From: an uncultured Christensenella sp.
GTDB taxonomy: Bacteria; Bacillota; Clostridia; Christensenellales; UBA1242
Assembly (NCBI GenBank): GCA_949293905.1
Contig: CASFFG010000002.1
Location: 12,153 to 76,152 of the forward strand
Reading direction: 5' to 3'
DNA: 64,000 nucleotides
This document shows, one piece after another, positions 20,301 to 63,700 of the stretch. Position 1 is the stretch's first letter, and every line of letters begins with the position of its first letter. The notes under the pieces were generated by a model, which was given only the letters and a program-made list of their open reading frames with translations, did no database searches and was not told the DNA's origin. Both the position numbers and the translations under genes were made by a program.

Positions 20301-20419
20301 ATAAATAAACTAAGTTTATCAGGAACTATAATATTAATCTCTCCACCTTCATTACGGCAAAAATCTACCACTTCGTCGAGTGCATCATGTAAAGACGGAA
20401 GATTGACCAAATTTATCAT
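17360..20419 (-). CDS. addB: ATP-dependent helicase/deoxyribonuclease subunit B (AddB)
   Basis: 1019 aa, immediately upstream of and overlapping addA. The C-terminal PD-(D/E)xK nuclease has flanking Fe-S cysteines (YFKCPFYYF ... CQYCPYMHVC). Confidence 0.9.
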   Translation of the reverse strand: MINLVNLPSLHDALDEVVDFCRNEGGEINIIVPDKLSLFMERYIFEKLQIEASFDIKVSTLNRFAKRTLNISQDSEITKVGSIILIHKILNENINNLKVLKSKAYSFSYAEEIYNTIQQLKASKITPQEMEDFKSNNAQLMDKILDLSLIYTQYEEHKAGLLDQSDTFLMSTLTVAKNRHNEKIIFVGFDDYTAIEYSIIERLAIENNVYILNYMTDKKNRYIYNTEIESQLRNIAYINELPFDKVSKVGYSNGIREFLTDNIFSTTNEKFTLKKDEVRVFASNSIRAEIEFVARDIRSKILHGENYSNFGIATYDLEGKNNIFNEIFSKYEINYYLDSDFSLNKSVFYKFLVSIFKFNLEGYELTHLIDMINSPFFDIEQEKKYKICDILIKREFRSLKLDFVDFGDDLIAEKDKLKEFINLFIIDATFNVNDIFDMLENANKILDFDGKLLSLANNNSSLQDRLLLLKSREMVNNLLLEVDKFYPQIDMTSLYDILVRVASIVKINNLPQTLDAVKIVDAKDCMEVFNNLYILNCTNESAPSLKNDCGIILDSEIEELNFSHKLAPTIAHINRLSKLRLFNTCLQFNNSLTISYSKTASELVTEICNRVIVRTKDKGINLCPVEVGNLGKNLALSRWDYIEKICKQNSKNNNFVLNFNEKYSKNHEISIKNKNFSQISNDNLKIYENLNTISASQLENYFKCPFYYFSANVLKIKEREESEIQSFDVGNILHELLYKYYKRNKVVGDIYEFCRDEVFAFIDKNPRLKLKSSSPIITNLIDESVRVIYGLNYIDENSAFQPVNILLEHKFGGGTALKLKNIDVIGTVDRVDEYNDMLRIIDYKSGRANASLKELYYGNKLQLFLYSCAMENELKKSVVGGFYLPLHNAYTKLDDGGYSLNGFFINNEEIVKALDGRIQPDEKSDIVNIRLTKKGLARRTRGYKELSSNEMLSLKEYAKAVSENAVDEIKSGFISPSPSTVSDPCQYCPYMHVCLKSSSKIGRRIAKNVKPESFGGENA

Positions 20420-27800: not shown

Positions 27801-28012
27801 ACTTAAATCCTTTCCGCTACCGTGGTTACTACTTCGATACTGAAACAGGACTTTATTATATAAACAACAGGTACTATGACCCAGAAATTGGTAGATTTAT
27901 TAACGCTGATGAGATTGGCAATATAGATACCGAAAATCTAAACGGCTTCAATCTCTATATTTATTGCGCCAACAATCCAGTAAACAATGTACAGCCTAAA
28001 GAAATTAATTAA
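24881..28012 (+). CDS. RHS/YD-repeat protein ending at the RHS core (no C-terminal toxin domain)
   Basis: 1043 aa with many YD repeats (YxYDxxGNL, e.g. YKYDEKGNIIEI, YDAGGNIV). The RHS core end is PFRYRGYYFDTETGLYYINNRYYDPEIGRFINAD...NLYIYCANNPVNNVQPKEIN-stop. Confidence 0.9.
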   Translation: MFKIKVNDVLLNTNASGNIYADIALPASLNNVKITKAKLKLVVNKDKNSNNNEEISVNYEYVKDGIVNLRWENIDHLSNLANGDVIYIDFLNELQDACTLGASNLHLVFCKNTTSDLTFNEINSSNVDVECISLYEYESNSGSHEIDCGRAGVVSINLSTGEFSLNHFDVKSDSNTLPLIIAHNYNSSPANNFKFFNDENFDTHCGKGWKLNIQQYLKKVNSRSNLNNGHNQDNSLNFEYIDATGKTQLLHNSVKIKSELEDLPIKSNHLKGLIKTQVPVYYLCNDDNIIYGFGKTADENIFRLILITDAYGNGIYINYEDLNSNKIISLINSTGNSFLFNYNKQDLLESIVDSRNRKINFEYENNLLTKITYPDKNYSQYLYNPDNKIIAVIDQSGLGKYFEYNDKGKVTRIMTYHKDEPSRKFYQEFMLDEKGRITSSINEFGITVSNYVYLDGTNIILKEIDKNGNIISYDYDKNVHLIGLTTSSNGEENTNIYGYTLNYLTSLKHNDFEYNYEYDNLGKLNRILIANEVYFTKSYTDNSETITYKNGATFKRTFNSDGKITSVEYNQAPILENVYDPLGNLIKSTDKTNNESNVHNYYYDKFGNLYKETSTQHSINVEIKNTIDKKTGDTTASEIKLGNKTLNYSYNYNKNFVNKLDNVVLPNKKTQYIVNDKLCRTYEIKLDSHIKLYHYLSNGDHTSNLISSVWYGDRDKINGNYRYKYDEKGNIIEIKENSILIARYKYDNLSRLIREDNRLFNKTTTIEYDAGGNIVFKLEYLFTLTDNLNESTPAAIYPYLYKSTGWRDQLVSYNGENFAYDEVGNPTTCRGETLIWSHARQVVQLGDCKYTYNANGIRTSKIVNGVKTKFFLNGNRIIAQDDGNIIYYHYGADGIVGFTLQLSNTDIQEYTYKKNIQGDIIGIYELENVLICKYIYDAWGNTKTLILSSNGSYVDISSTSNDTCVNTKYLFIANLNPFRYRGYYFDTETGLYYINNRYYDPEIGRFINADEIGNIDTENLNGFNLYIYCANNPVNNVQPKEIN

Positions 28013-35852: not shown

Positions 35853-38800
35853 TTATGCTAATAATTCTGGTGGATATACCTTATTGAATGAAACTCCATA
35901 TCTTTTTTGTCCAGCACGATCAGCAAAATCTTTCATGCTATTCATCAAACCATTTCTGTTTTTAAATTTATCCACTACTGTATCAAAACTTTCTTGGTAA
36001 ATATTTGCCAATTCTTCACATATCTCTTTGCATTGCTCTTGTATTTTAGATATATCTTCTTTTGTATATGACTTTCTGTATAATGGAGCACGCAAACCTT
36101 TATCTAAATCTATCCAAGTGTCAAGTGCTTCTTGCATTAGCAGCGCAAACTCTTTATCATACTCAGTATGATTTTTTAGATTTTTTAGCGATATTTTTGC
36201 TCTATTTAACCTGTCAATTAATTCCTTCGAATAATCTTTTGTCTTAGGTTTTGTATCAATAGTAACAGCATCTTCACTCACAAATTCGGCATTCTCCCAA
36301 TCTATACCTAATGCATTTCCGCCACCATTTCCAGATTCAATAGCGTTCTGCGAATTGTCAACAAAAGCATTTATCGTTATATTGTATTCATTTTTGGCGA
36401 CATCTACTAATTTGTCTTGTAATGCTTGGATAGTTGTGTTTATGCTATTGCTACTAGATTTTAAAGTTTCCTTCATCTCGCTCGTACTAGCCGCTATCTG
36501 TCTACCGAGATCGTTATTACTATCTTTTATTACTTGTAATTGAGTTAATAACTCATTAAATTGGGCTTCGTCTAATTTTTCTTTCCTTGTTTGTAAAGAT
36601 TGAGAGATTGACTTAATTTCATTAAACATATTTGTAATTTCATCAGCCAAATACCTTTGTTTATCAAATTGCAACTCTCTTTCTTTTTGTTTTATTAATC
36701 TATTATTTTTATCATACTCATTTCGCACTGAATCTAGGTTGATATCTACAATTCTTTGTTTTAATTCTTCGCGATCGCCGCTTTCTAATATCGCATCTTC
36801 GTCTATATTTTTCGAGAGATTTTCAGCATTGTTGATTTGATTATCAAGTTCCGCATTTAAATCCTCTATCTCACTTAGACACTCTAATTCGGTTTTTATA
36901 TCAATATCTTCATTTAGTTTATTTTTTTGTTCGTCTATTTTTAATAATAAATTTGCTATATTGCTTTCTAAATTGTTGATATTTTGCTCATATTTATCTC
37001 TTTGTTCTCTTTGCGCTCTCTGTTCTGCTAGCACACGCTCTGCTTCTTCATTGACTTGTTTTGCCTGCTCCCATTCTGCCTTTCTTCTATTTTCTTCTTC
37101 TAGATATTCATTATATTTTTCTCTATCCAGTGCTTCATTGTTGTTAATGAGATCTAGGTCAGCTTGGTAAGTCTCTTCTTGAACTGCATTTTCAACTCGT
37201 CCGTCTTTTAATTCGCTTTCGTCAGTGTGAGTTGTTTTATACTCTTTGGCTACCTGTTTAAATCTCTCCTTTAAACTATTTAATTTTGCTTCGGCATTCT
37301 TCTTCTCTTCTTTTGAAAGTTTTTCTTTCCCAACATATTTGAATTCGCCTGTTTTTACATCTAGTTCGTAATCATTTAAGAATTCTTTTTCTTCAGGAGT
37401 AAGCCTAGCAAATTCGTAAGTAAAATCATAGTCTTCCAACATTTCAGTATCAGCAACATCGTTAGTTTGCTTATCAAAATACTTGCAAATTGCATAACCT
37501 TTTGCTATTTGAAGTTGTTCCCATTTCTTCTCAAACTCTTTATCTGCCAATGTTGCGTGATTAGACAAACGGAAATTCTTTTGCATTTCAGTGAGTTTAT
37601 TGTTTTCTGCTTCATACTCACTCTTTAAAGCAGGGTTAGATTTTAACTGCTTTTTTAGTTGTTTTACTTTAAGTTTTTGCTGTTTGATTGCTTCCTTGTA
37701 ATCATCGCAAAGTTTTGCATTCCCTGCGCTAACTTGAGCAACTCCGTCGACCATATTTAAGTTAGTTAAATAATGCATACTGGATACATTATAAAGTCGC
37801 TCTTCAAGATTGGAAATCTCGCCTAAGAACACATCAATGTTCTCAATTTGATTTTCCTTTGTTGCTGTAAACAAATTGGTTAAATCTTCAGTGTATCCCT
37901 TTTCAAATGCTTCCTTATTTAGTTTATTAGGGTCTTTAAGTTTTTCCAAAAATCTATTTTGAATCCAACATTTAGCAGCAATCACTGCCGGTGCAATAGC
38001 GAGTCCCGCGCCTATCGTTCCAAAAATCACCCCTGCTGTCACTAAGTTTGGTATCAGTGCCGCTATAGCAACTGCCGTTACGAGTCCGCCCCAACTAAAC
38101 ATAAGTGGAACAAACGCGCCAATACTTTTATAGAAATCCTTTATCTCATCGCCCGCTTTATGATTTCCCCAGCCGACAATATGCTTTCCGTCAAATCTTA
38201 AGTTTCGTGAACTGATAGATTTATACTGACTCGAATCTGCAAACGGGGCATCTACAAGTTGAGTATCACTTATAACATACTTTTTCCCTTTTTCGTCGAG
38301 TTTTACTAACTTTCCGTTTATTATAGCATCTTCCAACTGATACTGTCCAGATTTGTACCTTGCGTCGAAATCTACCATTGCAGTCGTTACTATGCCTAAT
38401 TTTTCTTTATTCGCAACTCTATCTTCGTTATATTCGTATATTACCTTACACTCTTCGCTAAGATTGATTTTAGGACGATTTGTCGTTTGTATAACATCAC
38501 ACTGATGTAATGGATTTGTCGAGCGCTTTAATGCTCTCGGTTTCTGTTCTTCAACACTTGTGATAATTCTAAAACCATCTTTCGTCTTTCCCTTTATCAC
38601 ATCGGCACGGTCTACAATACGAGTCTGCACACCTTCCACATTAGGAATTCGGCAATATACGAGATATTTATCAGCGGGAGCATCTTGATTTTCAGCATAA
38701 ACATAACCTATTGGACGCGCGGTCTTTTTCTCTTCCACAAACTTACCGTTATTTAGGCGCAAATAGGTGGTTTCATTTTCTTCCGCCTTATAATCTTCAT

Positions 38801-39869
38801 TTATTTCGCGGAAGTTTTTAATCGTGTCGAAAATTATATTTGCTTGCTCATAAGTTAGCGGTGCAATTTCTCGAATCTCATCACCAACTTTTGCGTATAA
38901 AGACTTTCCAACATAAGCACTAAAATTGGTTGTGGAATCTTTTTTTATAGACTTTTCTTTATTGCCTTCAAAAGCATCGTCATAACTGGAATATAAATTC
39001 TCTATTCCCACCATGCTTTCATTCGTGTCGCCAGCAAAATGAACTTTTAAAAATCTACCATTCTCATCTGTAATAAAATTTTTGATTTGAAGTTTTGGTT
39101 TTGCCCCGTGAACTAAGATTTGCTCACTATAATAAGTGTCCACTGGGCGATTAACATCATTGCCGTTCTCGTCATAACTCTTAACGCTTTTATTGTTAAA
39201 GTCTGCGGTCTCTTGCCTTGTAATTTCCCCAGGTGTATATCCATTGTCTTTATATACGAAAGTCACTGGAACATAACTACCGCTATCATTATAATATAAC
39301 TCTTTGCCTTGCAATTCTTCTATACTATTTATAGACAACGACGCATCATTAATTGGCACAAAATTAGCACCAACAAATGTGCCTAATTGAGATTTCTCAA
39401 TAAACTCTTTCTTCCCGCCAGATAATTCAGCATAAAGATAATTACTATCTTCATAGGCGCTCGGGCTCATTTTAACTCGACGCTTTAGACCATATGGCAC
39501 AACTTGAGTATTTCCAGAACTGTCAGTTCCGTCAATAGAGTACGAGTCTATCTCATTTGGGACTTCGAAATCTCTTACAAATATATTATTTTTATCAGCA
39601 TCGTCGAGAGTGTTTCCCGGATTATATTCCTTGGCAACTCCCGCTGCAACGGTAAGTGTAGAATTTCTCTTAACATTATTAAAATCTCTTAAAGAACTTA
39701 TCCTTCTACCTTGTGAGTCGTTTATATAGACAAACACTTCACTTAACGGCACATATGTATTCCTTTTACCATAATGTATAAAAATTTGAGAAAGATTTAA
39801 TTTTCCAGCATCTTTTTCTTCTATTTTTCTAAATCCGTCAACTAATTCCACCGTATTAGTGCTTGGCAT
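35853..39869 (-). CDS. Very large protein of unknown function: about 590-aa N-terminal globular region, TM hairpin, about 700-aa coiled-coil C-terminal region
   Basis: ORF track 35853..39917. Preferred start is ATG 39867-39869 after GAGAGGTG. Two adjacent hydrophobic helices (WGGLVTAVAIAALIPNLVTAGVIFGTIGAGLAIAPAVIAA) are encoded at about 37965-38115. The C-terminal half is E/K/Q/N/L-rich heptad-like sequence. The stop lies 14 nt before the glyQS ATG. Confidence 0.7.
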   Translation of the reverse strand: MPSTNTVELVDGFRKIEEKDAGKLNLSQIFIHYGKRNTYVPLSEVFVYINDSQGRRISSLRDFNNVKRNSTLTVAAGVAKEYNPGNTLDDADKNNIFVRDFEVPNEIDSYSIDGTDSSGNTQVVPYGLKRRVKMSPSAYEDSNYLYAELSGGKKEFIEKSQLGTFVGANFVPINDASLSINSIEELQGKELYYNDSGSYVPVTFVYKDNGYTPGEITRQETADFNNKSVKSYDENGNDVNRPVDTYYSEQILVHGAKPKLQIKNFITDENGRFLKVHFAGDTNESMVGIENLYSSYDDAFEGNKEKSIKKDSTTNFSAYVGKSLYAKVGDEIREIAPLTYEQANIIFDTIKNFREINEDYKAEENETTYLRLNNGKFVEEKKTARPIGYVYAENQDAPADKYLVYCRIPNVEGVQTRIVDRADVIKGKTKDGFRIITSVEEQKPRALKRSTNPLHQCDVIQTTNRPKINLSEECKVIYEYNEDRVANKEKLGIVTTAMVDFDARYKSGQYQLEDAIINGKLVKLDEKGKKYVISDTQLVDAPFADSSQYKSISSRNLRFDGKHIVGWGNHKAGDEIKDFYKSIGAFVPLMFSWGGLVTAVAIAALIPNLVTAGVIFGTIGAGLAIAPAVIAAKCWIQNRFLEKLKDPNKLNKEAFEKGYTEDLTNLFTATKENQIENIDVFLGEISNLEERLYNVSSMHYLTNLNMVDGVAQVSAGNAKLCDDYKEAIKQQKLKVKQLKKQLKSNPALKSEYEAENNKLTEMQKNFRLSNHATLADKEFEKKWEQLQIAKGYAICKYFDKQTNDVADTEMLEDYDFTYEFARLTPEEKEFLNDYELDVKTGEFKYVGKEKLSKEEKKNAEAKLNSLKERFKQVAKEYKTTHTDESELKDGRVENAVQEETYQADLDLINNNEALDREKYNEYLEEENRRKAEWEQAKQVNEEAERVLAEQRAQREQRDKYEQNINNLESNIANLLLKIDEQKNKLNEDIDIKTELECLSEIEDLNAELDNQINNAENLSKNIDEDAILESGDREELKQRIVDINLDSVRNEYDKNNRLIKQKERELQFDKQRYLADEITNMFNEIKSISQSLQTRKEKLDEAQFNELLTQLQVIKDSNNDLGRQIAASTSEMKETLKSSSNSINTTIQALQDKLVDVAKNEYNITINAFVDNSQNAIESGNGGGNALGIDWENAEFVSEDAVTIDTKPKTKDYSKELIDRLNRAKISLKNLKNHTEYDKEFALLMQEALDTWIDLDKGLRAPLYRKSYTKEDISKIQEQCKEICEELANIYQESFDTVVDKFKNRNGLMNSMKDFADRAGQKRYGVSFNKVYPPELLA

Positions 39870-39888
39870 ATACACCTCTCTTTTGATA

Positions 39889-39899
39889 ATTATAGCACA
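39889..39899 (-). promoter_or_regulatory. Extended -10 promoter (TGTGCTATAAT) for the 1338-aa gene
   Basis: Minus-strand TGTGCTATAAT ends about 20 nt upstream of the ATG, just downstream of the preceding terminator. Confidence 0.5.
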
Positions 39900-39997
39900 C
39901 GCGCAGAGAAAAATCAATATTTCAACGGACTTTTAATTAAAATAGTAATTGATAAACATGATTAAATTCCAATGAAATTAATGAAAATTTTTTGATA

Positions 39998-49253: not shown

Positions 49254-49439
49254 ATGAAATTTAAAGCAGACGATTTAATTAGTTTTGTACTTCAAAATCA
49301 CAAAGATGCTGAAAAAATATTGACCGAATTTGGTTTCCATTGTATATATTGTCCCGCCGCTCAAGGAGAGACGATAGAAGAAGCGTGTTATGTCCACCAA
49401 GTAGATGTAAACGAACTTTTAAAAGCACTAAATAAATAG
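49254..49439 (+). CDS. DUF1858 / hybrid-cluster-protein-associated redox disulfide protein
   Basis: 61 aa. ILTEFGFHCIYCPAAQGETIEEAC is the CxxC-containing signature of this small family. Confidence 0.7.
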   Translation: MKFKADDLISFVLQNHKDAEKILTEFGFHCIYCPAAQGETIEEACYVHQVDVNELLKALNK

Positions 49440-49621: not shown

Positions 49622-49652
49622 TATAAAAGAAGCGAACTTAAAGTTCACTTCT
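49622..49652 (-). terminator. Rho-independent terminator of the AT-hook protein gene
   Basis: An 11-bp stem AGAAGCGAACT (49628-49638) / AGTTCACTTCT (49642-49652). Its one non-Watson-Crick position is G-U on the minus strand. A T-rich tail follows on the minus strand. Confidence 0.6.
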
Positions 49653-49660
49653 AAAATTTT

Positions 49661-52042
49661 TTATTCCTTAGGGGTTCTACGCGAGATACGAGATTTCTTC
49701 TCTAACTCCTTAGTCGTTTCCGCAATTTTAGCGTTTTCTTCTGCTATTTGCGCGTCTAGTTCTTTTAAGAAATTCTCTAAATCTTCTTCCGTATTAGCAG
49801 TTGGAGCAGTGACTGTTGCATCGTTTGCTACACTGTTTGGAGTTGCATTTATTGTCTTATTTGAAGCTTCGGTCTCAGTGTTTCCACTAATTTTCTTAGG
49901 TCTACCTCTTCGTTTAGATTCACTAGTAGGAATAACCTTTTCTTCTGCGTTCTTTTTCGGTCTGCCTGCTTTCTTTTTAGGTTTAGTCTCGGTAGGGGTA
50001 TCATTAGTTTGAGTGGCAGGTCCCACAACTTTTCTTGGTCTACCAGGTTTACGCTTTGGAGTCTCGGCAACACTACCTGTTGTGTCAGCCTTATCTTCAA
50101 CTATTTTCCTAGGTCTACCCGGCTTTTTCTTTGGTGTGCTAACTTGTGCGCTCTCGGTCTTTCTAGGTCTACCCGGACGTCTTGGTTCAGTAGTGGTTTC
50201 TTCCGTCTTAACTTTTTTAGGTCTTCCCACTGGGCGAGAAGGTTTTACCACCTTTTCCTTTCTCGGTCTACCCGGTCTTTTCTTTGGAGTTGTGCTTTCA
50301 TTTTGGACGGTGACGAATGGTTCTTGTCCTACCGAATTTTCCCCTTCTTCGATAGGTTCATTATATGATTCAACTTGATTTGTAGTTTCGGTCGGCTCGT
50401 CGTCTAAATAATTAAATGTAAATCCTTGCTCTACCGCATTCCCCGCCTGTGTAACTGGTTCGATAGGCGCATTGGCTATAGAAGCATCTTCACTAGGTTG
50501 AGTCATGGCAGGCTCAGCAGGGTAATTGTTATATACCGGCTGATTGCTAAAATTCTTGTTAGAAACATTTGGTACATTCTGCTCGTTGTTAGTGTTGGCC
50601 GTTTGATTCACAACCTTATCATAACGCTCACTCATTTCACGAGTAATGCTATCTTCCTCGTTTTCCTTGTTTAATGCTTCCAACTCTTCTTCTGTTGGTT
50701 CAGGCTGTGGTGGAGTTATGCCGTTATTTTGAAGCGCATTCTCTAATTGAGAAACTCTATCTTCAAGCGTCTTAACTTTCTTATTATGAGAGGCTTCTGC
50801 TTGTTTAATCGCAGCATCAAACACCTTATCACTATATGTATTGAACTCGCTCATCATGCCTTTTTCAAGTTTGGTTCTAACTTCCTTGATTTCATTTTCA
50901 ATAGCAGTGAGTTCTTCTTGATAGTTCTCTAAAATCTTTTTATGCCTGTCCGTTGCAGTATCGTAATCTCGCTCTAAGTTACGCTGTCTGTCCAACTCTT
51001 GTTGTTGCTGTTTCTTTAAATAGTTCGCTTCAATCGCGCTGGACGCTTCATCTAATTGTGCTTTAAAGTTTTCAAACGACTCTTTACTAACCTGCATTTG
51101 ACGCTGATATTCCTTGGTCGTTTCACGGAACGAGAGTTCTTCTTGCGATATGTCATTATTAATTTGTTCCATATCTTGCATATACTTTTTACGCTCGGCG
51201 ATATAACTTTCCGCCTCCTGCATGGCGCGTTCTAGTACGAGTGAACTTTCAACTCCCGCTTCGTCAAAGTTGAATTTTTCATGCTCTACATTGCGAAGTC
51301 GAGCACGCTCTAATTCTTTCTTCTCTTCTTCCGCTCTGCGTTGCAAATACGAATAAAGAATAGGAATACCTTTTCTAATCTCGTTTTTATCGAACAATAC
51401 TTCATAGTCAACATAGTCAGGTAGAGTTTGTGTCGCCTTATCCATATTCACTTCAAAATATTGATAATTTTGATGCAGGTCACTAACTACCGCGTTGTGC
51501 CTTAAATCTAGGAAGATTGTAACTATATAATTTAACACCAAAATAAATATAGGACAAAGTAATGTTTGCTGTAAAACTGAAACTAGATCCACAACCATAA
51601 TAGAATAAAGGTTAAATAAGAAACTAAGGATCGCTAATATGTATGAGATGATGTTCATTGTCGTTATATCGCGTTTAAAGGTACTATTTTTAAGTGGGGA
51701 AGAAACGCAAATTTCAAACGACATGTAGTGGCTAGCAGGGTGCTCACGATAAAGTACGAATTGTTGCCACTGCTTCCTAAGTTGTTTAGGAACCTTTCTA
51801 CTCTTCATTTTATTATTAAATGGAACTAGATTTTCTTCCGTGATTTGTGGATTATTAATAAAATAATTGTTAAACATATCCACAGCCTTAATTAGTTTCA
51901 CTTCATACGCATTTGAAGTCGAAATAATCGTAACTATAATTACAAACAAAAATATACCAACGAAAATTAAAAACGATTCGTTGAGTGTTAAGTATCCGTA
52001 TAATGAACTAAAAAATCTATCAATTTCATTAAATACGTTCAT
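49661..52042 (-). CDS. Membrane protein with cytoplasmic coiled coil, low-complexity linker and seven C-terminal AT-hook (GRP-core) motifs
   Basis: Start is ATG 52040-52042 after AAAGGGGAA. Three hydrophobic helices lie in the first ~200 aa. The E/K/Q-rich heptad region runs for roughly the next 280 aa (about residues 230-510). The AT-hooks are KKRPGRPRKEK, RPVGRPKKVK, RRPGRPRKTE, KKKPGRPRKIV, KRKPGRPRKVV, KKKAGRPKKNA and KRRGRPKKIS, encoded at 49883-50290. Confidence 0.75.
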   Translation of the reverse strand: MNVFNEIDRFFSSLYGYLTLNESFLIFVGIFLFVIIVTIISTSNAYEVKLIKAVDMFNNYFINNPQITEENLVPFNNKMKSRKVPKQLRKQWQQFVLYREHPASHYMSFEICVSSPLKNSTFKRDITTMNIISYILAILSFLFNLYSIMVVDLVSVLQQTLLCPIFILVLNYIVTIFLDLRHNAVVSDLHQNYQYFEVNMDKATQTLPDYVDYEVLFDKNEIRKGIPILYSYLQRRAEEEKKELERARLRNVEHEKFNFDEAGVESSLVLERAMQEAESYIAERKKYMQDMEQINNDISQEELSFRETTKEYQRQMQVSKESFENFKAQLDEASSAIEANYLKKQQQQELDRQRNLERDYDTATDRHKKILENYQEELTAIENEIKEVRTKLEKGMMSEFNTYSDKVFDAAIKQAEASHNKKVKTLEDRVSQLENALQNNGITPPQPEPTEEELEALNKENEEDSITREMSERYDKVVNQTANTNNEQNVPNVSNKNFSNQPVYNNYPAEPAMTQPSEDASIANAPIEPVTQAGNAVEQGFTFNYLDDEPTETTNQVESYNEPIEEGENSVGQEPFVTVQNESTTPKKRPGRPRKEKVVKPSRPVGRPKKVKTEETTTEPRRPGRPRKTESAQVSTPKKKPGRPRKIVEDKADTTGSVAETPKRKPGRPRKVVGPATQTNDTPTETKPKKKAGRPKKNAEEKVIPTSESKRRGRPKKISGNTETEASNKTINATPNSVANDATVTAPTANTEEDLENFLKELDAQIAEENAKIAETTKELEKKSRISRRTPKE

Positions 52043-52351
52043 AATAATTCCCCTTTTATCTATCCTAGTCGACAAATATTTACATAGTTATTATAACACA
52101 ATTAATAATTAATTACTAATAATTTTTAAATATTTTTTAAAAATTTTTAAATATTTTTTTATAAATCCTATTATGTTTTAATATAATATTTTTTATATTT
52201 TTTTAATTAATTAATTTAATTTTTTATGAATTTTAATTATTTTTTTGCATTTTTAACCTATTTTTAATGTAATTTTTAATTAATTTTTTCATTTGACATA
52301 TTTTAATTATTATTTTATAATTTTAAATGTATAATATTTTAGGAGAACATT

Positions 52352-54768: not shown

Positions 54769-54796
54769 ATTTTAACAAATTGATGCAATTTGTCAA
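54769..54796 (-). promoter_or_regulatory. Candidate promoter giving a leaderless queH transcript
   Basis: Minus-strand reading is TTGACA (54791-54796, overlapping the TGA stop of the giant gene), a 16-nt spacer, TAAAAT (54769-54774), ATTATC, then ATG. No Shine-Dalgarno is possible in the 6-nt gap. Confidence 0.45.
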
Positions 54797-57700
54797 GAAA
54801 GTTTTGTAAATGTAATGGTGATATTTTCTTCCCTTTCAACAGAACTTTCTTCAATTATAGATGTGATTTCGAGTCTAAATATGAGTTGTTCTTCTACGAA
54901 TAATCCTTCATTGTCTGTTAATTTAACCCTACTATTTTCTCCAATTTGAGTGCCCTCATCTGTTATTCCTGCAGTCTTAAATATTAGCATAGTTTCATTT
55001 TCTTCTAAACCGTAATATCTATTTATCGCGTTAGGGTCAAATGCTAAATTAGATGTATCTCCGCGTAAGGTTATCGAATTTCTACCTCCGCTGACATAAA
55101 GATTCGTTGCTGTATATGTATCAAATTCATATATATTATCGCTATTTATGTCCGTACCAATACTTTCTAAATCTATCCTTAAAATTGGTTCGATTATTTC
55201 AGTTGAACTAGGAGTAAACACAATAATTTCGGCAGAATATCCCCTTCTTGACCATGAGTCAAACGAACCAACTGACACTCCCACAAAGTAGGTCACATAA
55301 GTATAATCTACATTGATACCCGAAACTATATTGTTGCTTGCCGAACCTGCACCAACTTTAAAGATATTTGAATATGGCAAATCGTAAGTCGCGCCAGTGT
55401 ATAAGTTCGCATCGTTAATTAATCCAACTTGCGAATTAATTATAGAACTACTAGAAGTATCATAGTTTATTACGAAATTGTTACCAATTACGGCATATGT
55501 AGTATCAGCATAACTAATTTGATTATCTGCGATACCTACAAATAGTCCAAGAACTCTACCATAATTAATTGATGAACTGAAATCTTCCGCTCCAAGCGAA
55601 TAAGAATAGTAGTCACTCATATTATCAACTAAATATTGAATCGTATCTAATGATAATTTTAAATCGTTGTACTGAGACAAAGTCCTTCCTTGATAATTAT
55701 AAGATATATCTTCTTTCCTCGTTGGCAGAACTGATTTACTGTTATTATCGATTGAACCTACACCTGTAGTACGATTGTTAAATGTGTCAAAAGTATAATC
55801 TGCGCCGATTATTCCACCAGTGTAGAAACTTAATAGTTCACCATTAAAGTCCACCGAATGAATATATCCATAAAGGTTTCTACCCACAATTCCACCAGCC
55901 GTAGATGTAGTGTTAGTCTTTAATATGCTGAGTTCAACCTGTGAATCCATTATAACTCCACCCATATTAAAACCAACTAAGCCTGCGTTTACATTGTTAG
56001 AATTGTTAAATATATCCGCATTTGTACTCACGACGTTAGCCGAAGTTATCCAACCACGATTTTCACCGACTAGTCCAGCACTGTACTGGTAACCATAAAG
56101 TATTCCACCAGTCAACTCAACCGTAGCGTTATTCACCTTAACTCGCTCGCCTATCATACCAAACGCTGAACCGATTGTATCTCCTATCACTGTTAGGTTT
56201 CCACTAACAGAGATATCTTCCGCTATGAAATAGTTACTATCGACAAGCGTTCTCGTACTAGAAGCACTGTAATTTCTACTATCATATCCGTCCAAAATAC
56301 CAGCGATACTACCTGCATAGTAAACTTCTTCGATATTAGAAGATACTTCCGCACCGTTATTTTTAGATTTATAGACTGCGTATTGATATTGTGTAGACGC
56401 TCTAACGCTATTTACACTGACCGTACTTGAAATAGTTTCGATATCAAATCTCCCCCGCACTATTCCAGCGAGTCCGCCAACCGCATTAGAACCAACCACA
56501 ACATCATCGGCAGATAAATCTATATTGTATAGTTTATAATCTTCGATAATTCCAGCCAATATACCAACCGCACTCGTTCTAGAAGCAAGTAGTGAACTCG
56601 CATTAATATCTAGATTCCTAACCGCATTGGCGACTGAACTATCTTGTACAGTAATATTCCTAAACAAACCTATAGATGACAAGTCTTCTTGCGAATATAT
56701 CATAAGTCCGTCAATATCCACATTGTTACCCTGAATATTTCCAGAGAATGTCATTGAACTCGTGGTCGGGCTAGCGTAAAGGCTAGAAAAGTCTATGTCC
56801 GCTATAAACCTAAAATATTTAGTCATATTATCTTCGATGAAATATCTTTGATAACTGTCTAGGTCGTAGATTAAAATTGGATTCTCTTTTTCGCCATACC
56901 CGTTATCACTTACAATCCACCTATATGTGTAACCGATAATGTTATTATTGTTGTCTAAGATAGGTTCGTCTTCTCTTCTAATCGTCCTAAGTCCGTAGTA
57001 GTATTGACTATATTGTACGCCTTCTATGGTGACTATCGACCCGCTTGGCGCTTCGTTTCTTGTATATTCTACTGTTTCAAGAGTAGAAACTAGTTTTGGA
57101 GTTAGACTTCCACCCATTGTCCATACTGCATTTTCGTTATCTCCAAAAGTAAATCCAGCATATCTAGTACGGTCAAGTCTATTATTATACTCAATCTGCT
57201 CCAAGCCGTCTATGCCATCTTGATAACCACTAACATATGACTTAATTTCATACGAGTTTTCTATCCCTGTTGTACCAGAAGGTGCGAACATGTTAACAAT
57301 AGAACTTGACTTATTACCATTGTTAATCATGGTGTAACATTTTTCAATAGTGGACGAATTGACGCTCACAAATCCTGAGAAAATGTTGTTACTATTGTCA
57401 CCCACTTGCTCCATAACTACATACGAATCATAAATAGTTCCTGCATTATTATATACGAAACCAGCGGATATATCTTTAGCCGATATGTTACCGATAGGAT
57501 AATAGTTCATACCATTAATCAAGCAGTAATTTACGCCAGATTCTACATAACTCATCGAGATTTCACCCGTATTGTTAACTACAAATCCAGCGACTTCTAT
57601 TACGCTATTATAACTATTTGTCCTATTATACGCATAAATTAAGCCATAACCATTTGGATTCGTCGTGCTTGAAGTATTCGCATTAAACGCGCTTGAAGAA

Positions 57701-60700
57701 ATCTTCCCCGCATTTGAATATGCTAGTCCACCAATATTTGCTTTCGCAAAAATTTGAAGTTCGCTAGTGGAATTTGTGATATACCCCGTAGAATTATTAT
57801 TTCCTACCAGTCCACCTATATAGAAGGATACGTCTAAATCTTCCACTTTTGCTTCAACCGTCGGTGCAGTAAGTGCAACAAGTCCTTTTACCTTACAATT
57901 AGTAATAATCCCTGAATTTGAAGGTGTAATACCACCGAATGTAACCGATTCATAATCGACTTCTGCGCTTTGTGCAATATTATAATAAGTTACATCAAAA
58001 CTTGAACTTGTTCTTGAATACGAACCAAAATTATATGTATCTCTACTTCTACTATACTCGACTGTTAGGTTCATAACTAGCATATCTTCATAAACTTGAC
58101 TAAATAATCCAGCCTGGATATCCGCATCAGTAAATACTGAGAAATTTCTAATTGTAATAGTGTGCCCATTTCCGTCAAAATAGGTTAAATCCACATCGAG
58201 CGGAGTATAGTTTTCTAATACGATATCATTTCCTAATGTGTATCCCGTGCCCGACTCCATATTTAAGAATTCTAGGGCAGTAGTTACTAGATTTGTTTCA
58301 TGGTCTGTTAATGCATCTGTAAAATTCAATTCATAGTCGATATTGTATGAAATTTGCGAATAATTAGCTTGATTAGTTGGGTTTTCTTCTGTACTAAATT
58401 CCCAATAATTATCTACTAGGTTTAGATAGAATTTTAAGGTCATTTCATCAATGTCTACCAATCCAGATGGGCGTATAGTATAAGTAAAATTATCATTTTG
58501 GGTGATAGTTAAAACATTGCTATCATCTTCGTCCAACAATGTCAATACATTCTCAGTTATTGTTATGTTATCGTTATCAAATCCTGAAAATTCTAGTAAT
58601 TCAAGTATTCCTATATTGCTATTTAACTCGGCCAAGATTTGATTTAGATAATATATTATTCCACTACCTTCACTAATATCTGGATTATATTCTATATCAT
58701 CACCGCTTGCGCCGGCAAAACTCACATCATTTGAGTCAAAATAAAAGTAGAAATTAGTGTTAGAGTTATTGTTACCATATAGTGTATGTCCGTTGTTAAC
58801 CGAATGTGATATGCTCACATCGTGAATAACAAAATTAGTGAATTTAAAACTAATTGATTTAGTCGCTGTATCATAGTCACCATTTTCATTAGTCAAAACT
58901 GCGTTTGCCGTGATAGTCAGCGTGCCCCCTAAAAGAGTTTCCATATTCACGCCTTCGCGCGGAGTCAATTCATAGAAATTGGTGCTAGAGGATAGCGTAT
59001 AGAAATAATCTTCAAAATTGAGTTCATTATTACTATTATCTACCAATGTATAACTGAATGTTGGCACTGTGTTATCAGCATTTGTAGCGTAAATTAAGAA
59101 GTCGTTTATCGTCCCGATAGCCAGGTATCTAGTTGTTTGTGTGCTTTCCACCGTTCCGTCTGGACGAATATAATTCATCACAATGCTCGGCATCATGCGT
59201 GCCGTTATGATTATATTCCTAGGCGGCGATACTAAAACATCTCCCACTCCTTCCGTCCTAACATACGCACGAACTTGGATTGTATGTTCAATCGAAGAAT
59301 ACTCTCTACTAATACGCGTGCGAACATAAATCGTATTCGTATCACTAGTATTGTTTAAAATAATTCCTAATCCGTCGCTAGATGGCAAGTCTACTCCTAA
59401 ACGATTGCCGTCTTTATCAACTTGAGCAAATACAATAAGTTCTTGTCCTGTTATATCGCTAATTTCCAAATAATCATAATAACCATTTACAGGCGCGATA
59501 TTTATAACCATAAGTCCATAGACATCAGGGTCAGTCTCTGTCCCTGACTTAATTATATCGCTCTCAATCCAACTATTATTTTCTCGTATATAGTTCTTAA
59601 TCTCTATGCTATTAATTCTTTGTGGAAGAAGAGTAAACCCTATATTTGCTCTCTCGACTCCGTCTATGGTGAAATTTAAGTCTAAGTCATGTCTTGTTGT
59701 TGTATCAATTGTTGTAGGGAACACTACATCAAAAGTCACCTTTTGGATTCCAGTTTCACTCACTAACTCACCTAAGTTAATATTAGTTATGTAACTGGTT
59801 AAGTCTGTTTGAATATTGTCATCTAGATAAATGTTGACTAATTCTAAGAATTCGTCTTCTGTTTCTAGTGCCTTATCTGTCGTGATATTTGCAGTTACGC
59901 TAGTCTTATCATTAGGGTATAAGATAAGTGAATTGTAATCGACAGAAATGTTTGATGCACCGCGGTATGTGTATAGGTTAAACTGAATTTGATTTTCAAA
60001 CTCAATTCTATGTCCCGCCACCACAATATATGGAGTAAGTGTAAATTCAAAGTATGCGTCATTATCTACACTTTCTAAAACAGTGATACTAAACGGAATG
60101 TCATAATCCAAATCTGCTACCCAAATGTTGTCACTGATCACATCAGTTCCGTCGACATTTGTCACTTTCTTAGTAAAAGTTATTCCACTGATATTGAGAT
60201 AATCACTCAAATTGTCTATCACACCTACGAGAGCGGTATCTACTTCGATATGAAGATTTACGGTTGAATTAGTTTGATATTCATATCCGTATCTCTCCCC
60301 GCTAGAAATTGTATAGAATTGCTCAGCGTAACCTTTGGCAATATTTACATCTTCTCCATTAATACTTAAACTCTCGTCCACGCTAGACTTACTTATTACG
60401 AACCTATCACCAATAGGATAGCCAACATAAATTCTAACCGTTTGACTAATCGAATTATTAAGCGGAGATGTAAATCTAATTTCAGCATATCCCGTTCCGC
60501 GAAGAAGGATATAACTATTTGAAATCATAACTACATTTGAATTAGAACTAGTGACACTTAATCTAACATTTTCTAAATCTTCTGGGTCAACTTCAAAATT
60601 AAGCAATTCATATAATGAATGTCTATTACTGCGAGTTAGCGAATTGTTGTTATTTTCATCTTCTACATATGAGTAGTAATTATAGTATTCTAAATATATA

Positions 60701-63700
60701 GAATTACCATCTAAAATAACTGCCCCGTCATATTCTTTGCTAGACACGGTGACCGAATTAGGAATTCGCTCAAATATTGGGTTATCGTCACTTCCTTTTA
60801 TGTAGATATACCCACCATTAGTTGAAGCGTCGTAACCCCAAATGTTGCCATCTGCATCGAAACTATCACTACCGTCTTGAGCCTTACTTATATTCCAATT
60901 TATCGGGTCTGTCGCAATGATAGGTTCAGTTCCTAACGAATTTCCATTCACTGAGAACATTCTATATCCAATTTGATTTGTTATATTGGATACGACTAAT
61001 TCATTTGTCTGTCTACCGTCTAACTTACCGATAAACGCCACATTAAACAGTATTGATGAGCCAACTGAGTTGTCCGGATAACGAATAGAATTGACAAGTC
61101 CTGCGCTCTCTATTCCACTATTTATTACCTTAATGTACGCGTTAGCGCTAGACTTTACTATCGCTGTCGTGTCGAACGAGCCTGCTCCAACACCGCCCAT
61201 TATGCCAGCATTTGCTCCACCGATTAGTCCTGCTACATAGTTTTGCCCAACTATATCCGCATTCCCTGTTATTTCAGTACAATTAGAATAATCAAAGCGA
61301 TAACTATATACCGAGCAAGATTCTAAATACGAATTGGTTGCATTTCCTATAATTCCACCGACATAATGGACTCCCACTATTGAACTAGTGGTAGTGCTCG
61401 CTTGAATTTGATAATGGACATCTCTATAAATGCCATATTCGTCCAAGCCTGTAACGCCACCAACATTATCTCCCGTTGAAGACATTTTTACAAGCGATGT
61501 AATATTGTAAAAGTTATAATTTGAACTATCCACACTGACATTTGTAATGGTTGAGCCACTATCTGTAGTCACTACGACCTTAGGGGTTACTCCATCGATT
61601 GAAATTCCTTCATTATAACCTATAACTCCGCCTACATTACTATGACTGGATATTATGTTACCTAAAACATAAGCATTTTCAAGCGTTGCATTAGTAGAAT
61701 TTATACCTATTATTCCACCAACAGCACTTCTATTATTGGTTAAATTAGAATTTATGTTAATATCTGCAAGTGCGCCGTCATTTCCTAAGTAAATTCCAAA
61801 AATGATATTACTAATTTGAGAATAGCCGACCATTTCGCTAGCATTGGCGTCTAAAGTTGTAGTTCCACTAGCATCATCAAATCCCTTGATACTGCCATCG
61901 TTGTTTCCAACCAGTCCACCAAAATAGACGATAGCGTCACCCGTTATGTTCAGCGTACCGCTAAATGTTACACCTACAATTGAGTTTGAAGTATATTCAA
62001 TTTCCCCTTCGTTAACGCCAACAAGTCCGCCAAAGTAGATTGTACTATTTTCTCCATTCAATCTTACACTAGACGAACTGCCGTTTGTAGTAAGCGTGGT
62101 ATTTAATAACGAACCATTATTAACATCAATAACACCTAAATTTAATGCTGAATTTGAATTAATTTCATACTCATAAGTTACATTAAAGTTTATGTTAGTT
62201 ATACTGCCGTTAAAGTTTGTAAATAAATTCCTGTTTGTGTTATTTAATACTACACCAGATATTGTAAATACATATTGAGTATTATCGTCTTGTGAGAAAG
62301 TCGTTATCGAACCTGTAAACCCGTCAATAACTTTACTTCCAATATAGTTAGTGTTGCTAATATTAATATTTGTCATTAGCATATAATGCGCGGATTTCAT
62401 AAGTTCGCTATCATTTATTTCCCAGAAATCTTCCGCATTAAATATAGCGTATGGATTACTCTCTGTGCCATTAGATAGTATTAACTGTATCTCTATATAT
62501 GCATCATAATATTTTGTCGGGTCACTAGTTGGACCATTCAAAATAAAGTCGGTAGGGTAATTATATCCAGATGTAAGGTCACCTAATTCTACATTTAGTA
62601 CATCTCGAGCAAACACAATTAATCGTAAATTATTGCCAGATACTAAATTAGACCTAACGGAAAGGCTATTCCCGCTTATACTTACGCTATTATTCTTATT
62701 TCCATATCTATCTACAACAACCATATAAATTCCAGACGAAGTGACATCTCCTTCGCTAGAAAAACTCTTGTACGTTATGGTATAAGGGTCTTCCCCCGCC
62801 TTTAAATTTAGATAATACTCCGTACCATTTTCTGTAAGAGTATTTAACTCGCTAGTAATTTGTATACTCTCTGTTAAGACAGGTCGTTCTACAGTTATTG
62901 TAAACATTATATTAAATGGATCGCTATTGAACTGAGTGAATGTAGCATATATTATACAAGTATAACTGCTAATTGTACCTACCGTATTAAATCTAAGGCT
63001 AACAGAATTGTTCCCTTGCGTTTCCGTGTATATCAGTGGTGCATTGGCGCTATCCGTTCTCCACACAACTTTAAAATAGTTATTAACTGAATTTTCTGTT
63101 CCGTCTCCCGCACCTTCTTCACCTTCGCCTGTTTGTGTGCCAGAACTATTGCCAACTACGCCTATCGCACCCGTTTGCTCACCTGACTGGATATAGTTCC
63201 AAAGCGAAGGGTTAATTAGATTTATATTTAAAGTCGCACTTGCGAGATTTTTATCATAGACCCCAAGACTATCGTACATATATCTAGTCACTCTAGTTCC
63301 GCTGACAGTCTGTCCGTCATATGTTATACTTGCAGATATATCGTTGAGTTGTAGTTCTTCATAGACAAAGAATACAATAGTAATACTTTCTTTTACAGTG
63401 CCGTCCACAGTATAAATATTAGGATAATTTTCTACTTCTATCTCTATATTTAATGTAATATACCTTATTTCGTCTACAAAAGTTCCCCTATGGAACGATA
63501 GACTTGGATTACTATCCAATTCCCCATTATATCTAACTGTCACAAAGTCAGTTGCGTTGTAATTATCACCACCATCGTAAGTTAAGATATAAGAATAAGA
63601 TACGAGTTCATAGACTTCGTCTAATTTTATTTCCAAGTCAAGCGATTGTCCGCTAGCAACGATATAATCTGCTTTATAATCTGCAAATAGGTACTGTGCT

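Follow-up and report, generated by a model that had tools for sequence, protein, structure and literature searches.

How the nucleoid is positioned relative to the membrane is little understood in bacteria devoid of Noc-, MatP-, or PopZ-type systems, of which the abundant, uncultured gut lineages resembling Christensenellales are an example. The locus considered here, located within a 64-kb stretch of DNA from such a lineage (64,000 nucleotides, hereafter the window), raises this question directly. It encodes a protein in which a predicted membrane module is followed by a tail carrying seven AT-hook cores. Is this protein a tether between chromosome and membrane, and does it belong to any described family?

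The explanation that we favor is that of a lineage-specific core protein of Christensenellales-like gut Clostridia, whose membrane module and AT-hook tail would tether the AT-rich chromosome to the membrane; we give it a probability slightly below one half (about 0.48). The family thus offers a concrete, expressible candidate, namely an integral membrane protein with a predicted multivalent minor-groove DNA-binding tail. Its architecture, conservation, predicted topology, fold resemblance, tail interchangeability, and linkage to addBA were computed; we infer that it binds DNA, as well as its oligomeric state and its role in the cell.

The gene and its AT-hook tail

The features of the locus are as follows.

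49661..52042, minus strand: coding sequence of a 793-aa protein, stop codon included, with an ATG start at 52042 to which the N-termini of the homologues align
52049..52055, minus strand: Shine-Dalgarno-like AAGGGGA, 6-7 nt 5' of the ATG, by direct reading of the sequence
51914..51979, minus strand: TM1, aa 22-43, from hydropathy, charge counts, and AF2 helices, with the N-terminus predicted outside the cell
51665..51913, minus strand: conserved helical domain in the cytoplasm, aa 44-126, which links TM1 to TM2 and stands where ZorA has its membrane-proximal cytoplasmic domain (Gly48-Leu127)
51503..51664, minus strand: TM2-TM3 hairpin, aa 127-148 and 153-180, weakly conserved apart from the invariant P164
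50723..51502, minus strand: region following TM3 and helical stalk, aa 181-440, strongly conserved
50291..50722, minus strand: acidic, Q/N/P/E/T-rich disordered linker, aa 441-584, of variable length and sequence among orthologues
49883..50290, minus strand: basic segment with seven AT-hook cores GRP(R/K)K, aa 585-720, from motif search and Pfam AT_hook
49685..49789, minus strand: conserved helix near the C-terminus (aa 752-786, EEDLENFLKELDAQIAEENAKIAETTKELEKKSRI), after which the protein ends in a basic stretch
49628..49652, minus strand: terminator-like hairpin, then a T run, immediately past the stop codon
49254..49439, plus strand: small DUF1858 gene, convergent with the coding sequence and a conserved neighbor of the family in this and distant clades

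The reading frame, the hydropathy profile, and the AF2 model bear out the layout proposed in the original prediction, with three transmembrane helices, about 260 aa of long helices, a low-complexity linker, seven AT-hook cores, and a terminal helix. An alternative start exists at an in-frame TTG (52075), from which the open reading frame 49661..52075 (minus strand) encodes 804 aa. The ATG at 52042 is favored by the GGGG Shine-Dalgarno sequence at 52050-52053 and by homologues starting with MNIFNE. The gene is seemingly monocistronic, since it has its own terminator-like hairpin and T run after the stop codon. Upstream of the coding sequence lies a 310-bp spacer of almost pure A/T in which TTAAAAAT-type motifs are repeated.

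The GRP[RK]K cores start at aa 591, 606, 624, 642, 667, 693, and 713, with a spacing of 15-26 aa. Their codons (50258-50272, 50213-50227, 50159-50173, 50105-50119, 50030-50044, 49952-49966, and 49892-49906, respectively) all fall in nt 49892-50272, and each core is preceded by two to three K/R residues. Shuffling the sequence 20,000 times gave on average 0.00065 cores over the whole protein and 0.013 over the tail, and never more than one. The seven cores claimed for 49883-50290 are therefore confirmed, against about 0.001 expected from the shuffles. Tandem Repeats Finder found no DNA tandem repeat beneath the hooks; it is thus the protein sequence in which the repetition is kept, and a recent origin by slippage was rejected.

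The Pfam AT_hook profile (PF02178) recognizes four stretches of the query tail with 17.4 bits, equal to its cut-off of 17.4 (E = 0.0037), and gives no match on the whole query protein at E ≤ 0.1. The tail barely reaches the cut-off, likely because P, V, or A precedes GRP in six of the seven cores, RGRP being found in one. In the orthologues, RGRP is the commonest form of the hook, and scores of 44 and 57.6 bits are obtained; over the family, the profile matches 25 of 53 members (best E-value 5.2e-20). Six query cores lacking the Arg that opens the canonical RGRP, together with a score just at the cut-off, are a counterpoint to the tether.

Repeated AT-hooks are expected to bind A/T tracts through the minor groove in a multivalent manner. 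Tracts of at least six A/T bases occur at 31.5 per kb in the window, in line with the A/T-tract-rich spacers described in the original prediction, which means that potential hook sites are everywhere.

A conserved chassis with interchangeable tails

Hydropathy and the AF2 helices define three hydrophobic segments (about aa 22-43, 127-148, and 153-180), and the helix of TM3 extends past the membrane, ending in the cytoplasm near aa 206. The loop 44-126 contains about 14 K/R residues versus about 0-1 in the N-terminus and in the TM2-TM3 turn. By the positive-inside rule, the topology is predicted to be N-out, C-in, with the tail on the cytoplasmic side, where the original prediction needed it. 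Residues invariant in the family within aa 44-126 include Y46, E47, N58, Y60, N71, L72, F75, N76, and K80, as well as P85, R89, W92, Q93, L97, R99, Y106, C112, and P116. Within this N-terminal module, conservation is lowest in the transmembrane segments, where P164 is the sole invariant residue across both clades.

Beyond the membrane, AF2 draws continuous helices from aa 153 to 439, and the region 181-440 contains long helices at 227-252, 265-331, and 336-439. Its invariant residues include P208, D212, Y213, E214, L216, F217, R236, A247, E255, and F259. Conservation is highest over residues 41-440 (66-85% identity, 70-75% between genomes, vs. 30% for the tail). Their conservation equals that of the neighboring QueH and Zn-peptidase and exceeds that of Alr. 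The view of the helical region as a coiled-coil spacer must consequently be revised, since the most conserved part of the protein is not a passive one. A pure tether leaves the role of the extremely conserved stalk (aa 181-440) unaccounted for. An identity with PspA, Vipp1, or ESCRT-III was set aside as a generic likeness of long hairpins, Foldseek on the long helices being weak (E-values of 0.2-1) and no match to PspA_IM30 or another Pfam family being found. The linker that follows has a net charge of about -21, and the terminal helix (aa 752-786) corresponds to an internal helix, LQKQIEEENAKL..., in sister-clade proteins.

Orthologues were collected from 52 species-level genomes, which are gut MAGs of Candidatus Onthoplasma and of other Christensenellales-like lineages. 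Each of the 47 bona fide complete orthologues has 3-11 hooks. The only orthologue ORF without hooks, L021, was left out of this count; in it, the N-terminal module is fused to an unrelated polytopic membrane protein, and because of this fusion and of a second copy in the same MAG it was taken as an assembly chimera. The 120 homologues listed all have 3-11 GRP cores, with 5-11 in each full-length one. The hook motifs are retained while the spacers between them drift, GRP(R/K)K being kept with high fidelity across hundreds of sequences. The GRP repeats are thus conserved in orthologues, as the original prediction required, and with the tail predicted inside the cell, neither of the two sequence-level tests refutes the original prediction.

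In one sister clade, at least three hooks are found in only 1 of 120 proteins, and other basic low-complexity segments are found instead. The tails of sister clades consist of either histone-H1-like K/A/P/T repeats (AKKP/TTKK-type), with a Pfam HC2 match (5e-6) in one member, or R/S-rich segments. These K/P/A-rich repeats also resemble the spacers of TolA, TonB, and AlgP, which are not necessarily DNA-binding, and this is a further counterpoint to the tether. Among 120 representatives of the family, most have a strongly basic 60-aa segment before the C-terminus, realized as AT-hooks, as H1/HC2-like K/A/P/T repeats, or as R/S/T/A-rich runs; in a basal clade of the family, the tails are only weakly basic, which again speaks against the tether. 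The AT-hook array is one of several interchangeable basic tails and is not family-defining, and the conserved property of the tail appears to be polyanion binding, not the hook itself. The family would also be a natural example of interchangeable disordered, predicted DNA-binding modules (AT-hooks, H1-like, R/S-rich) on one conserved chassis. A contig search with a narrow peptide pattern returned close relatives only; the source names of the distant clades are Clostridia and Christensenellaceae MAGs.

In the window, the neighbors are genes for a Zn-peptidase, Alr, QueH, DUF1858, and an LtaS-like protein. This synteny is retained in 38-42 of 52 genomes, and the gene is single-copy in a stable core position. 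The DUF1858 neighbor is conserved in position, which does not imply a functional link to the family. In the distant relatives examined, addB-addA lies immediately before the gene, 72-275 nt away and in the same orientation (5/5), and an SPFH gene (Band_7_1) is nearby in 4/5. In the window's own clade, addBA is 32 kb distant, so the linkage is not obligatory.

These observations lead to the following model. TM1, the cytoplasmic helical domain, the TM2-TM3 hairpin, and the extension of TM3 would form a ZorA/TolQ/ExbB-type membrane module, from which the conserved stalk would reach into the cytoplasm up to aa 440. The acidic disordered spacer would then present the basic segment with its seven hooks, followed by the short terminal helix. 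The hooks would enter the minor groove of A/T tracts, available once per ~30 bp in a genome of 32% G+C, so that DNA binding by the tail would be multivalent and sequence-unspecific. The membrane module, which is probably an oligomer by analogy with ZorA and ExbB, would keep the DNA at the membrane. Such a tether may serve nucleoid organization, segregation, or DNA-repair-linked positioning.

An alternative, unlikely but deserving attention, is that the tail is not directed at DNA. The protein would then be a membrane scaffold or hub for division, envelope, or membrane stress, whose acidic and basic disordered regions would serve as an entropic spacer, associate with RNA, polyphosphate, or anionic lipids, or promote the formation of condensates. 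Indeed, what is conserved and defines the family is its N-terminal 440 aa rather than the tail, some clades have weakly basic tails or TolA/TonB/AlgP-like KPAA-type repeats, the stalk gives the weak fold matches to Vipp1/PspA (E-values of 0.2-1), and the SPFH gene lies near in four of the five distant relatives. However, the GRP(R/K)K core is faithful in hundreds of sequences while its surroundings drift, the replacements of the hooks are histone-H1/HC2-like, the addBA linkage points toward DNA, and neither PspA nor other Pfam families give a match.

Structural resemblances and remaining alternatives

The AF2 monomer model of aa 1-262 (pLDDT 87.7, pTM 0.72) was compared by Foldseek with 350,542 PDB chains. 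The top 22 are all ZorA, TolQ, or ExbB, with probabilities up to 1.00 and TM scores of 0.44-0.53, but with E-values of 1.2e-2 to 1 and RMSD values of 6-14 Å. In a viral library used as negative control, probabilities were ≤0.14 and TM scores ≤0.25. In this prediction, aa 1 to ~260 fold like the ring (A) subunit of the 5:2 ion-driven motors (ZorA/TolQ/ExbB). Being weak in E-value (about 1e-2) and based on predicted monomer models, the match is another counterpoint to the favored explanation, as is the lack of sequence-profile similarity to MotA_ExbB, TolQ, or ZorA. At the structure level, the statement that the protein could not be mapped to a described family is qualified by the predicted resemblance of its N-terminal region to these three proteins. 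The family would extend their fold to a core, non-defense, non-envelope role in a monoderm lineage.

At the sequence level, the same statement stands, as Pfam, NCBIfam, PDB profile, and PADLOC searches are all negative. Whole-protein scans with Pfam and NCBIfam returned no family. Neither the query nor any of 53 members matches the Pfam MotA_ExbB profile at E ≤ 10, and the ZorA models of PADLOC do not match the query. Searching all PDB sequences with the family profile of the N-terminal module gave only noise. With E. coli TolQ, hhalign returned a probability of 0.2 and a lone, non-significant 16-residue alignment (RHNAVVSDLHQNYQYF vs. RLNQRVNKLELNYDNF) just past TM3, at the equivalent position. 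In the literature, we found no description of the family, neither as a membrane-anchored bacterial AT-hook protein nor as a new 5:2-motor family.

Could the protein be an active 5:2-type ion-driven ring? A pentamer would turn round an axle protein encoded elsewhere, and the stalk would move DNA held by the hooks or signal like the tail of ZorA. The sole fold matches are ZorA, TolQ, and ExbB, the long helical cytoplasmic tail past TM3 is ZorA-like with nearly the same segment boundaries, and the constraint on the stalk and on the membrane-proximal domain is very strong, which suits a mechanical or interaction role more than a spacer. Against this, no MotB/TolR/ExbD/ZorB-like gene is adjacent in eight contexts (the window and seven homologue contexts), and the 64-kb window holds no credible candidate for a single-pass protein with a membrane Asp (MotB/TolR-like). 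The transmembrane helices are the least conserved and keep P164 alone invariant, their hairpin has no conserved Thr/Ser equivalent to pore-lining polar residues such as the Thr147/Ser184 ion filter of ZorA, and no sequence-level relation to any A-subunit model is found. We thus consider an active motor improbable. We are just as doubtful of a broader formulation, in which a highly diverged branch of ring subunits would have become a housekeeping pentamer of monoderm gut Clostridia, without a partner or with another one. Its rigid conserved stalk, with 25-55 AT-hooks per complex, would connect the chromosome physically with the membrane and perhaps with ion-driven rotation; in the ancestral state, it would have worked alongside AddAB break repair.

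A membrane-anchored xenogeneic silencer or global regulator, acting like H-NS, Lsr2, or CarD on AT-rich promoters including its own upstream region, is less credible still. AT-hook-like motifs mediate the recognition of AT-rich DNA by H-NS, Lsr2, and CarD, and the 310-bp upstream spacer, which consists almost wholly of A/T and repeats TTAAAAAT-type motifs, would suit such a role. However, in a genome of 32% G+C with 31.5 W6 tracts per kb, hooks alone would not discriminate; the oligomerization or RNA-polymerase-binding domains of those families are absent according to Pfam, and known silencers are not anchored as integral membrane proteins.

Finally, a defense or exclusion device against incoming DNA, Zorya-like or of the superinfection-exclusion type, is very hard to sustain: even if ZorA, from the anti-phage system Zorya, ranks first among the structural matches and a DNA-binding tail at the inner membrane face could meet injected DNA, ZorB, ZorC, ZorD, and other effector genes are absent from the locus, PADLOC defense models gave coiled-coil noise only (from LmuB and JetC), which leads us to reject the Zorya and defense readings, tblastn found no homologue in 50,697 phage records, the gene is single-copy with stable core synteny across 52 species, and its conservation is on a par with that of housekeeping enzymes. 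For the same reasons (no phage homologue, no defense-model match, core-genome synteny), the role in DNA uptake or exclusion suggested in the original prediction finds no support.

Comparison with known systems

In ZorA, the cytoplasmic domain spans residues 48-127 (Gly48-Leu127) and the tail starts at 223 (PMC11946911); the corresponding boundaries in the window protein are 44-126 and about 227. ZorA (PDB 8qyd, 8qyk, 8vvn), the best Foldseek match (probability 1.00, TM 0.48-0.53), shares with it three transmembrane helices, a helical domain that separates TM1 from TM2 on the cytoplasmic side, and a long TM3 that leaves the membrane on this side and is prolonged by an extended helical tail. In contrast, the window protein is devoid of detectable sequence similarity, of the ion-filter Thr/Ser, and of ZorB, ZorC, and ZorD. 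Its gene lies in a core-genome context and not in a defense island, and it has an acidic/basic disordered end with AT-hooks, which ZorA does not have. A Zorya system was rejected, as ZorB and the effectors (ZorC/D, ZorE, or ZorF/G) are missing from the locus and PADLOC is negative.

TolQ and ExbB (MotA_ExbB, PF01618) have the same predicted topology and overall fold in the membrane and membrane-proximal part (TM 0.44-0.50 for TolQ, 0.3-0.45 for ExbB). They are energizers of the diderm envelope, always paired with TolR or ExbD, whereas the window protein is found in Bacillota with no adjacent partner. Moreover, TM2 and TM3 are the conserved core of TolQ and ExbB, while in the window protein the transmembrane helices are the least conserved.

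On the side of the tail, HMGA and Myxococcus CarD share the K/R-flanked GRP repeats and an acidic low-complexity stretch. These proteins are soluble, whereas the family has 5-11 hooks on an integral membrane protein (793 aa in the query). CarD also contains a CarD_CdnL_TRCF RNA-polymerase-binding domain, which Pfam does not find in the window protein. A CarD/HMGA-type regulator was ruled out, the query having no such domain and being a 793-aa integral membrane protein, not a small soluble one. Chlamydial Hc2 and the K/A/P-repeat proteins HupB and AlgP, which are soluble nucleoid proteins, are comparable to the sister-clade tails and not to the window protein.

The job proposed here, holding DNA at the membrane, is also that of the nucleoid-membrane tethers Noc, RacA-DivIVA, and plant MFP1 and PEND. 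They are not known to have homology with the family, AT-hooks, or a ZorA-like membrane module. Noc works through a CTP switch of the ParB type together with an amphipathic helix, and RacA is soluble and site-specific. Plant MFP1, with a membrane anchor, a long coiled coil, and a DNA-binding end, links thylakoids to nucleoids.

The family gene and its protein

The six-frame ORF list gives the family gene as an 804-aa frame starting at TTG (49661..52075, minus strand). An ATG at 52042, with a GGGG Shine-Dalgarno sequence 7 nt upstream, yields a 793-aa version, and this start coincides with the MNIFNE found at the N-termini of homologues. A terminator-like hairpin directly follows the stop codon.

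Layout of the 793-aa protein
aa ~22-43, 127-148, 153-180: three membrane helices (TM1 to TM3; hydropathy and two AlphaFold2 models)
up to aa 439: long helices after TM3 (AlphaFold2)
aa 441-584: acidic low-complexity linker
aa 585-720: strongly basic segment, holding seven GRP[RK]K cores (AT-hooks)
aa 591, 606, 624, 642, 667, 693, 713: positions of the seven cores

The original prediction of a 793-aa protein with three TM helices, a low-complexity linker and seven AT-hooks is thus borne out by the ORF, hydropathy, AlphaFold2 and 20,000 shuffles. Whole-protein shuffles gave a mean of 0.00065 cores against the seven present, and shuffling the basic segment alone gave a mean of 0.013 and a maximum of 1. 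No DNA tandem repeat was found beneath the array. Pfam AT_hook scores the tail at 17.4 bits, exactly the threshold (44 and 57.6 bits in orthologues), likely because P, V or A replaces the Arg before GRP in six of the seven cores. Across 53 sequences, the loop at aa 44-126 averages about 14 Lys/Arg, against about 0-1 in the N-terminus and TM2-TM3 turn. The predicted topology is therefore N-out, C-in, with the tail inside the cell; the opposite topology, which would have refuted the original observation, is not what the charges indicate.

A search of 5.8 billion proteins returned 337 relatives. The best 120 of them, mostly full length with a few truncated C-terminally, are 46-95% identical, are all unnamed or "hypothetical", and come from Candidatus Onthoplasma (Christensenellales) and "Clostridia/Clostridiales bacterium" gut MAGs. 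All 120 have GRP cores (5-11 if full length, 3-4 in the two most truncated). When one genome per species was scanned, the gene turned up in 52 species-level genomes, which stem from the gut of humans, rabbits, chickens and sheep. The hooks are conserved, with 3-11 copies in 47/47 bona fide complete orthologue ORFs, so a lack of conserved GRP repeats, the other refuting condition set at the outset that could be checked by sequence, is not seen. The single hookless ORF, L021 (CALCEI010000134.1), was set aside as a chimeric contig. In this one MAG (L021 and P0124), the 440-aa N-module runs into an unrelated polytopic membrane protein and lacks the tail; a second copy of the gene lies on another contig of the MAG (L015). 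Misassembly is the probable explanation, with a genuine fusion as a possibility. When 1.84 billion cluster representatives were searched exhaustively with a profile, 242 relatives were obtained (158 at E<=1e-30) and none beyond these, essentially all spanning the entire 440-residue module. Judged by these searches, this is a closed, lineage-specific family.

Among 30 non-redundant sequences, column conservation is 0.8-0.97 over aa 41-440 and 0.25-0.35 in the linker, and the hooks are kept as motifs alone amid a poorly conserved C-terminal part. Compared with its counterparts on two homologous contigs, the window's protein shows 70-75% identity in the N-terminal 440 aa and 30% in the tail. The N-module thereby equals the neighbouring QueH (70-77%) and Zn-peptidase (74-79%) and exceeds Alr (56%) and an LtaS-like enzyme (49%). 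Being as conserved as neighbouring enzymes, the "heptad-rich spacer" is in fact a functional module under constraint.

The tail across clades

A sister clade (301 proteins; seed P0145), with about 38% identity in the N-module, has at least three hooks in only 1 of the 120 proteins listed. Its tails follow the same plan: an acidic low-complexity part, a short conserved helix (ELDxIQKQIEEENxKL...), a basic segment and, at the C-terminus, the helix EIDxLNAEMQKLLxxxKK. Forms of the basic segment include histone-H1/HC2-like (AKKPAxKK or TTKKAATKK; one member matches Pfam HC2 at 5e-6), R/S/T/A-rich (SRPAARTSARP) and (KPAA)n. In a neighbour-joining tree of 120 representatives, AT-hook tails make up two groups and K/A/P/T tails several, and the tails of a basal group are only weakly basic. 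Since basic segments interchange across clades, positive charge, and not the AT-hook, would be what is conserved: a disordered, polyanion-binding segment at the end of an acidic spacer, of which AT-hooks are the form used by the window's clade. This modularity supports DNA binding as the tail's function. This reasoning falls short of proof, as TolA, TonB and AlgP have KPAA-type repeats too. The strongest rival, at something like one chance in five, is a scaffold in the membrane with a charged tail that has no action on DNA.

In distant members (e.g., P0181, P0212, P0200, P0206, P0166), the acidic tail part contains an aromatic repeat, (Y/F)(Y/F)DxxG(N/K/D/E), such as YYDENGNLIDYSQYYDENGN, in 2-7 copies (24/116 family representatives); it is absent from the window protein.

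Genomic neighbourhood

Features of the window
14104-20419 (-): addB and addA, same strand as the family gene, 32 kb away
24881-28012 (+): 1043-aa RHS-repeat protein (Pfam RHS_repeat, 5.6e-15), which may be a polymorphic toxin
35853-39917 (-): 1354-aa ORF without Pfam match at E<=1e-5
49254-49439 (+): small DUF1858 gene
52043-52351: 310-bp spacer between the family gene and the divergent Zn-peptidase gene, almost pure A/T, with many repeats of TTAAAAAT / AAAATATTTAAAAATT type
52293-52321 (+): perfect sigma-70 consensus TTGACA-17-TATAAT, facing the Zn-peptidase gene
54793-63786 (-): giant 2997-aa ORF rich in GGxxGxN-type repeats; its counterpart at the same syntenic position in homologue contigs L001 and L002 is 3657-3716 aa long and lacks recorded Pfam domains

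In the window's clade, the family gene is monocistronic, divergent from the Zn-peptidase gene and convergent with the DUF1858 gene, and has QueH, Alr and a giant surface-type protein upstream of it. The arrangement is kept in 38-42 of 52 genomes. A DUF1858 gene, in varying orientation, lies within a few kb in 42/52 close genomes and 4/5 distant contexts. In all five loci of distant relatives examined (L056, L058, L061, L062, L063; one hook-bearing), the family gene stands directly 3' of addB-addA, same strand, 72-275 nt away, and in four of them SPFH (Band_7_1) and DUF1858 genes occur within 4 kb. None of the 52 close genomes has addB-addA within 6 kb. The addB-addA-X arrangement is ancestral and was broken in the window's lineage; this linkage to a double-strand-break helicase-nuclease is an indirect pointer to a DNA-related role.

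Predicted fold and proposed role

A first model (aa 1-445, pLDDT 77.9) matched ZorA best in the PDB, then Vipp1/PspA, TolQ and ExbB. With a deeper alignment (53 sequences, two clades), the aa 1-262 model reached pLDDT 87.7 and pTM 0.72, and its top 22 matches among 350,542 PDB chains were solely A subunits, the ring subunits of 5:2 ion-driven motors: ZorA (E 1.2e-2 to 2.3e-2, probability 1.00, TM 0.48-0.53; Shewanella ZorA TM 0.46-0.51, RMSD 6.3 Å), TolQ (TM 0.44-0.50) and ExbB (TM 0.3-0.45). A viral structure library, searched with this model as a negative control, gave nothing above probability 0.14 and TM 0.25. The structure prediction called for at the outset thus yields a ZorA/TolQ/ExbB-like fold, while the remote-homology comparisons are negative: Pfam MotA_ExbB matches none of 53 family members at E<=10, PADLOC ZorA models do not match, hhalign puts the probability for E. 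coli TolQ at 0.2, and a search of all PDB sequences with the family profile brings up no A subunit. We therefore speak of a good resemblance in fold and do not count the N-module among the A subunits.

A further hallmark of A subunits is missing too: no MotB/TolR/ExbD/ZorB-like gene adjoins the family gene, either in the window or in the contexts of seven homologues, and the search of the 64-kb window gave no such candidate. A true rotary machine with an unlinked axle, which the fold would suit, is consequently improbable. A membrane-anchored silencer or regulator, which hooks could also serve, is less probable still. A defence or exclusion device is very improbable, and the DNA uptake or exclusion first suggested finds no support: searches found no phage homologue and no defence-model match, and nothing points to mobility or defence.

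We favour, at slightly under even odds (about 0.48), a nucleoid-membrane tether acting through predicted hook-DNA binding. What the analysis shows is an integral membrane protein with a C-terminus predicted in the cytoplasm, in which a conserved module of ZorA/TolQ/ExbB-like predicted fold leads into a conserved helical stalk, a flexible acidic spacer and the seven conserved AT-hooks. The genome around the family gene has 31.5 A/T runs of at least 6 bases per kb, and the hooks would recognise these ubiquitous tracts through the minor groove, with no specificity for sequence. The module in the membrane may oligomerise, by analogy as a pentamer, which would bring about 35 hooks into one complex and confer high avidity; shielding the basic segment, or holding it off the anionic membrane, may be the task of the acidic spacer. 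Such a complex would tie nucleoid DNA to the membrane and so help to organise it, segregate it or position it in connection with repair. The original observation is confirmed, and its interpretation partly supported and materially revised.

ZorA has three TM helices, a membrane-proximal cytoplasmic domain (Gly48-Leu127 and Lys207-Ser222), Pro163 and a tail from Gly223 (PMC11946911). The query has an almost equal layout, with TM1 at 22-43, a cytoplasmic domain at 44-126, invariant P164, TM3 to about 206 and a tail from about 227. However, whereas the conserved core of true A subunits is a TM hairpin with a Thr/Ser filter (PMC11946911), conservation within the N-module is lowest in the TM helices, P164 being their sole invariant residue, and the invariant residues cluster elsewhere, in the cytoplasmic domain (Y46 E47 ... 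R89 W92 Q93 L97 R99 Y106 C112 P116) and just after TM3 (P208 D212 Y213 E214 L216 F217). From their similar residue numbering, both clusters may match subunit-subunit contact regions of ZorA, which we offer as a lead and no more. Literature searches turned up neither a bacterial AT-hook protein anchored in the membrane nor an account of this family among relatives of 5:2 motors, and no described family includes it by sequence, in line with the original observation. By predicted fold, it would be a variant of the ZorA/TolQ/ExbB ring subunit that is divergent, has no partner and bears a predicted DNA-binding disordered tail. Its proposed function, tethering the nucleoid to the membrane, is a known idea that would here be realised in a new way.
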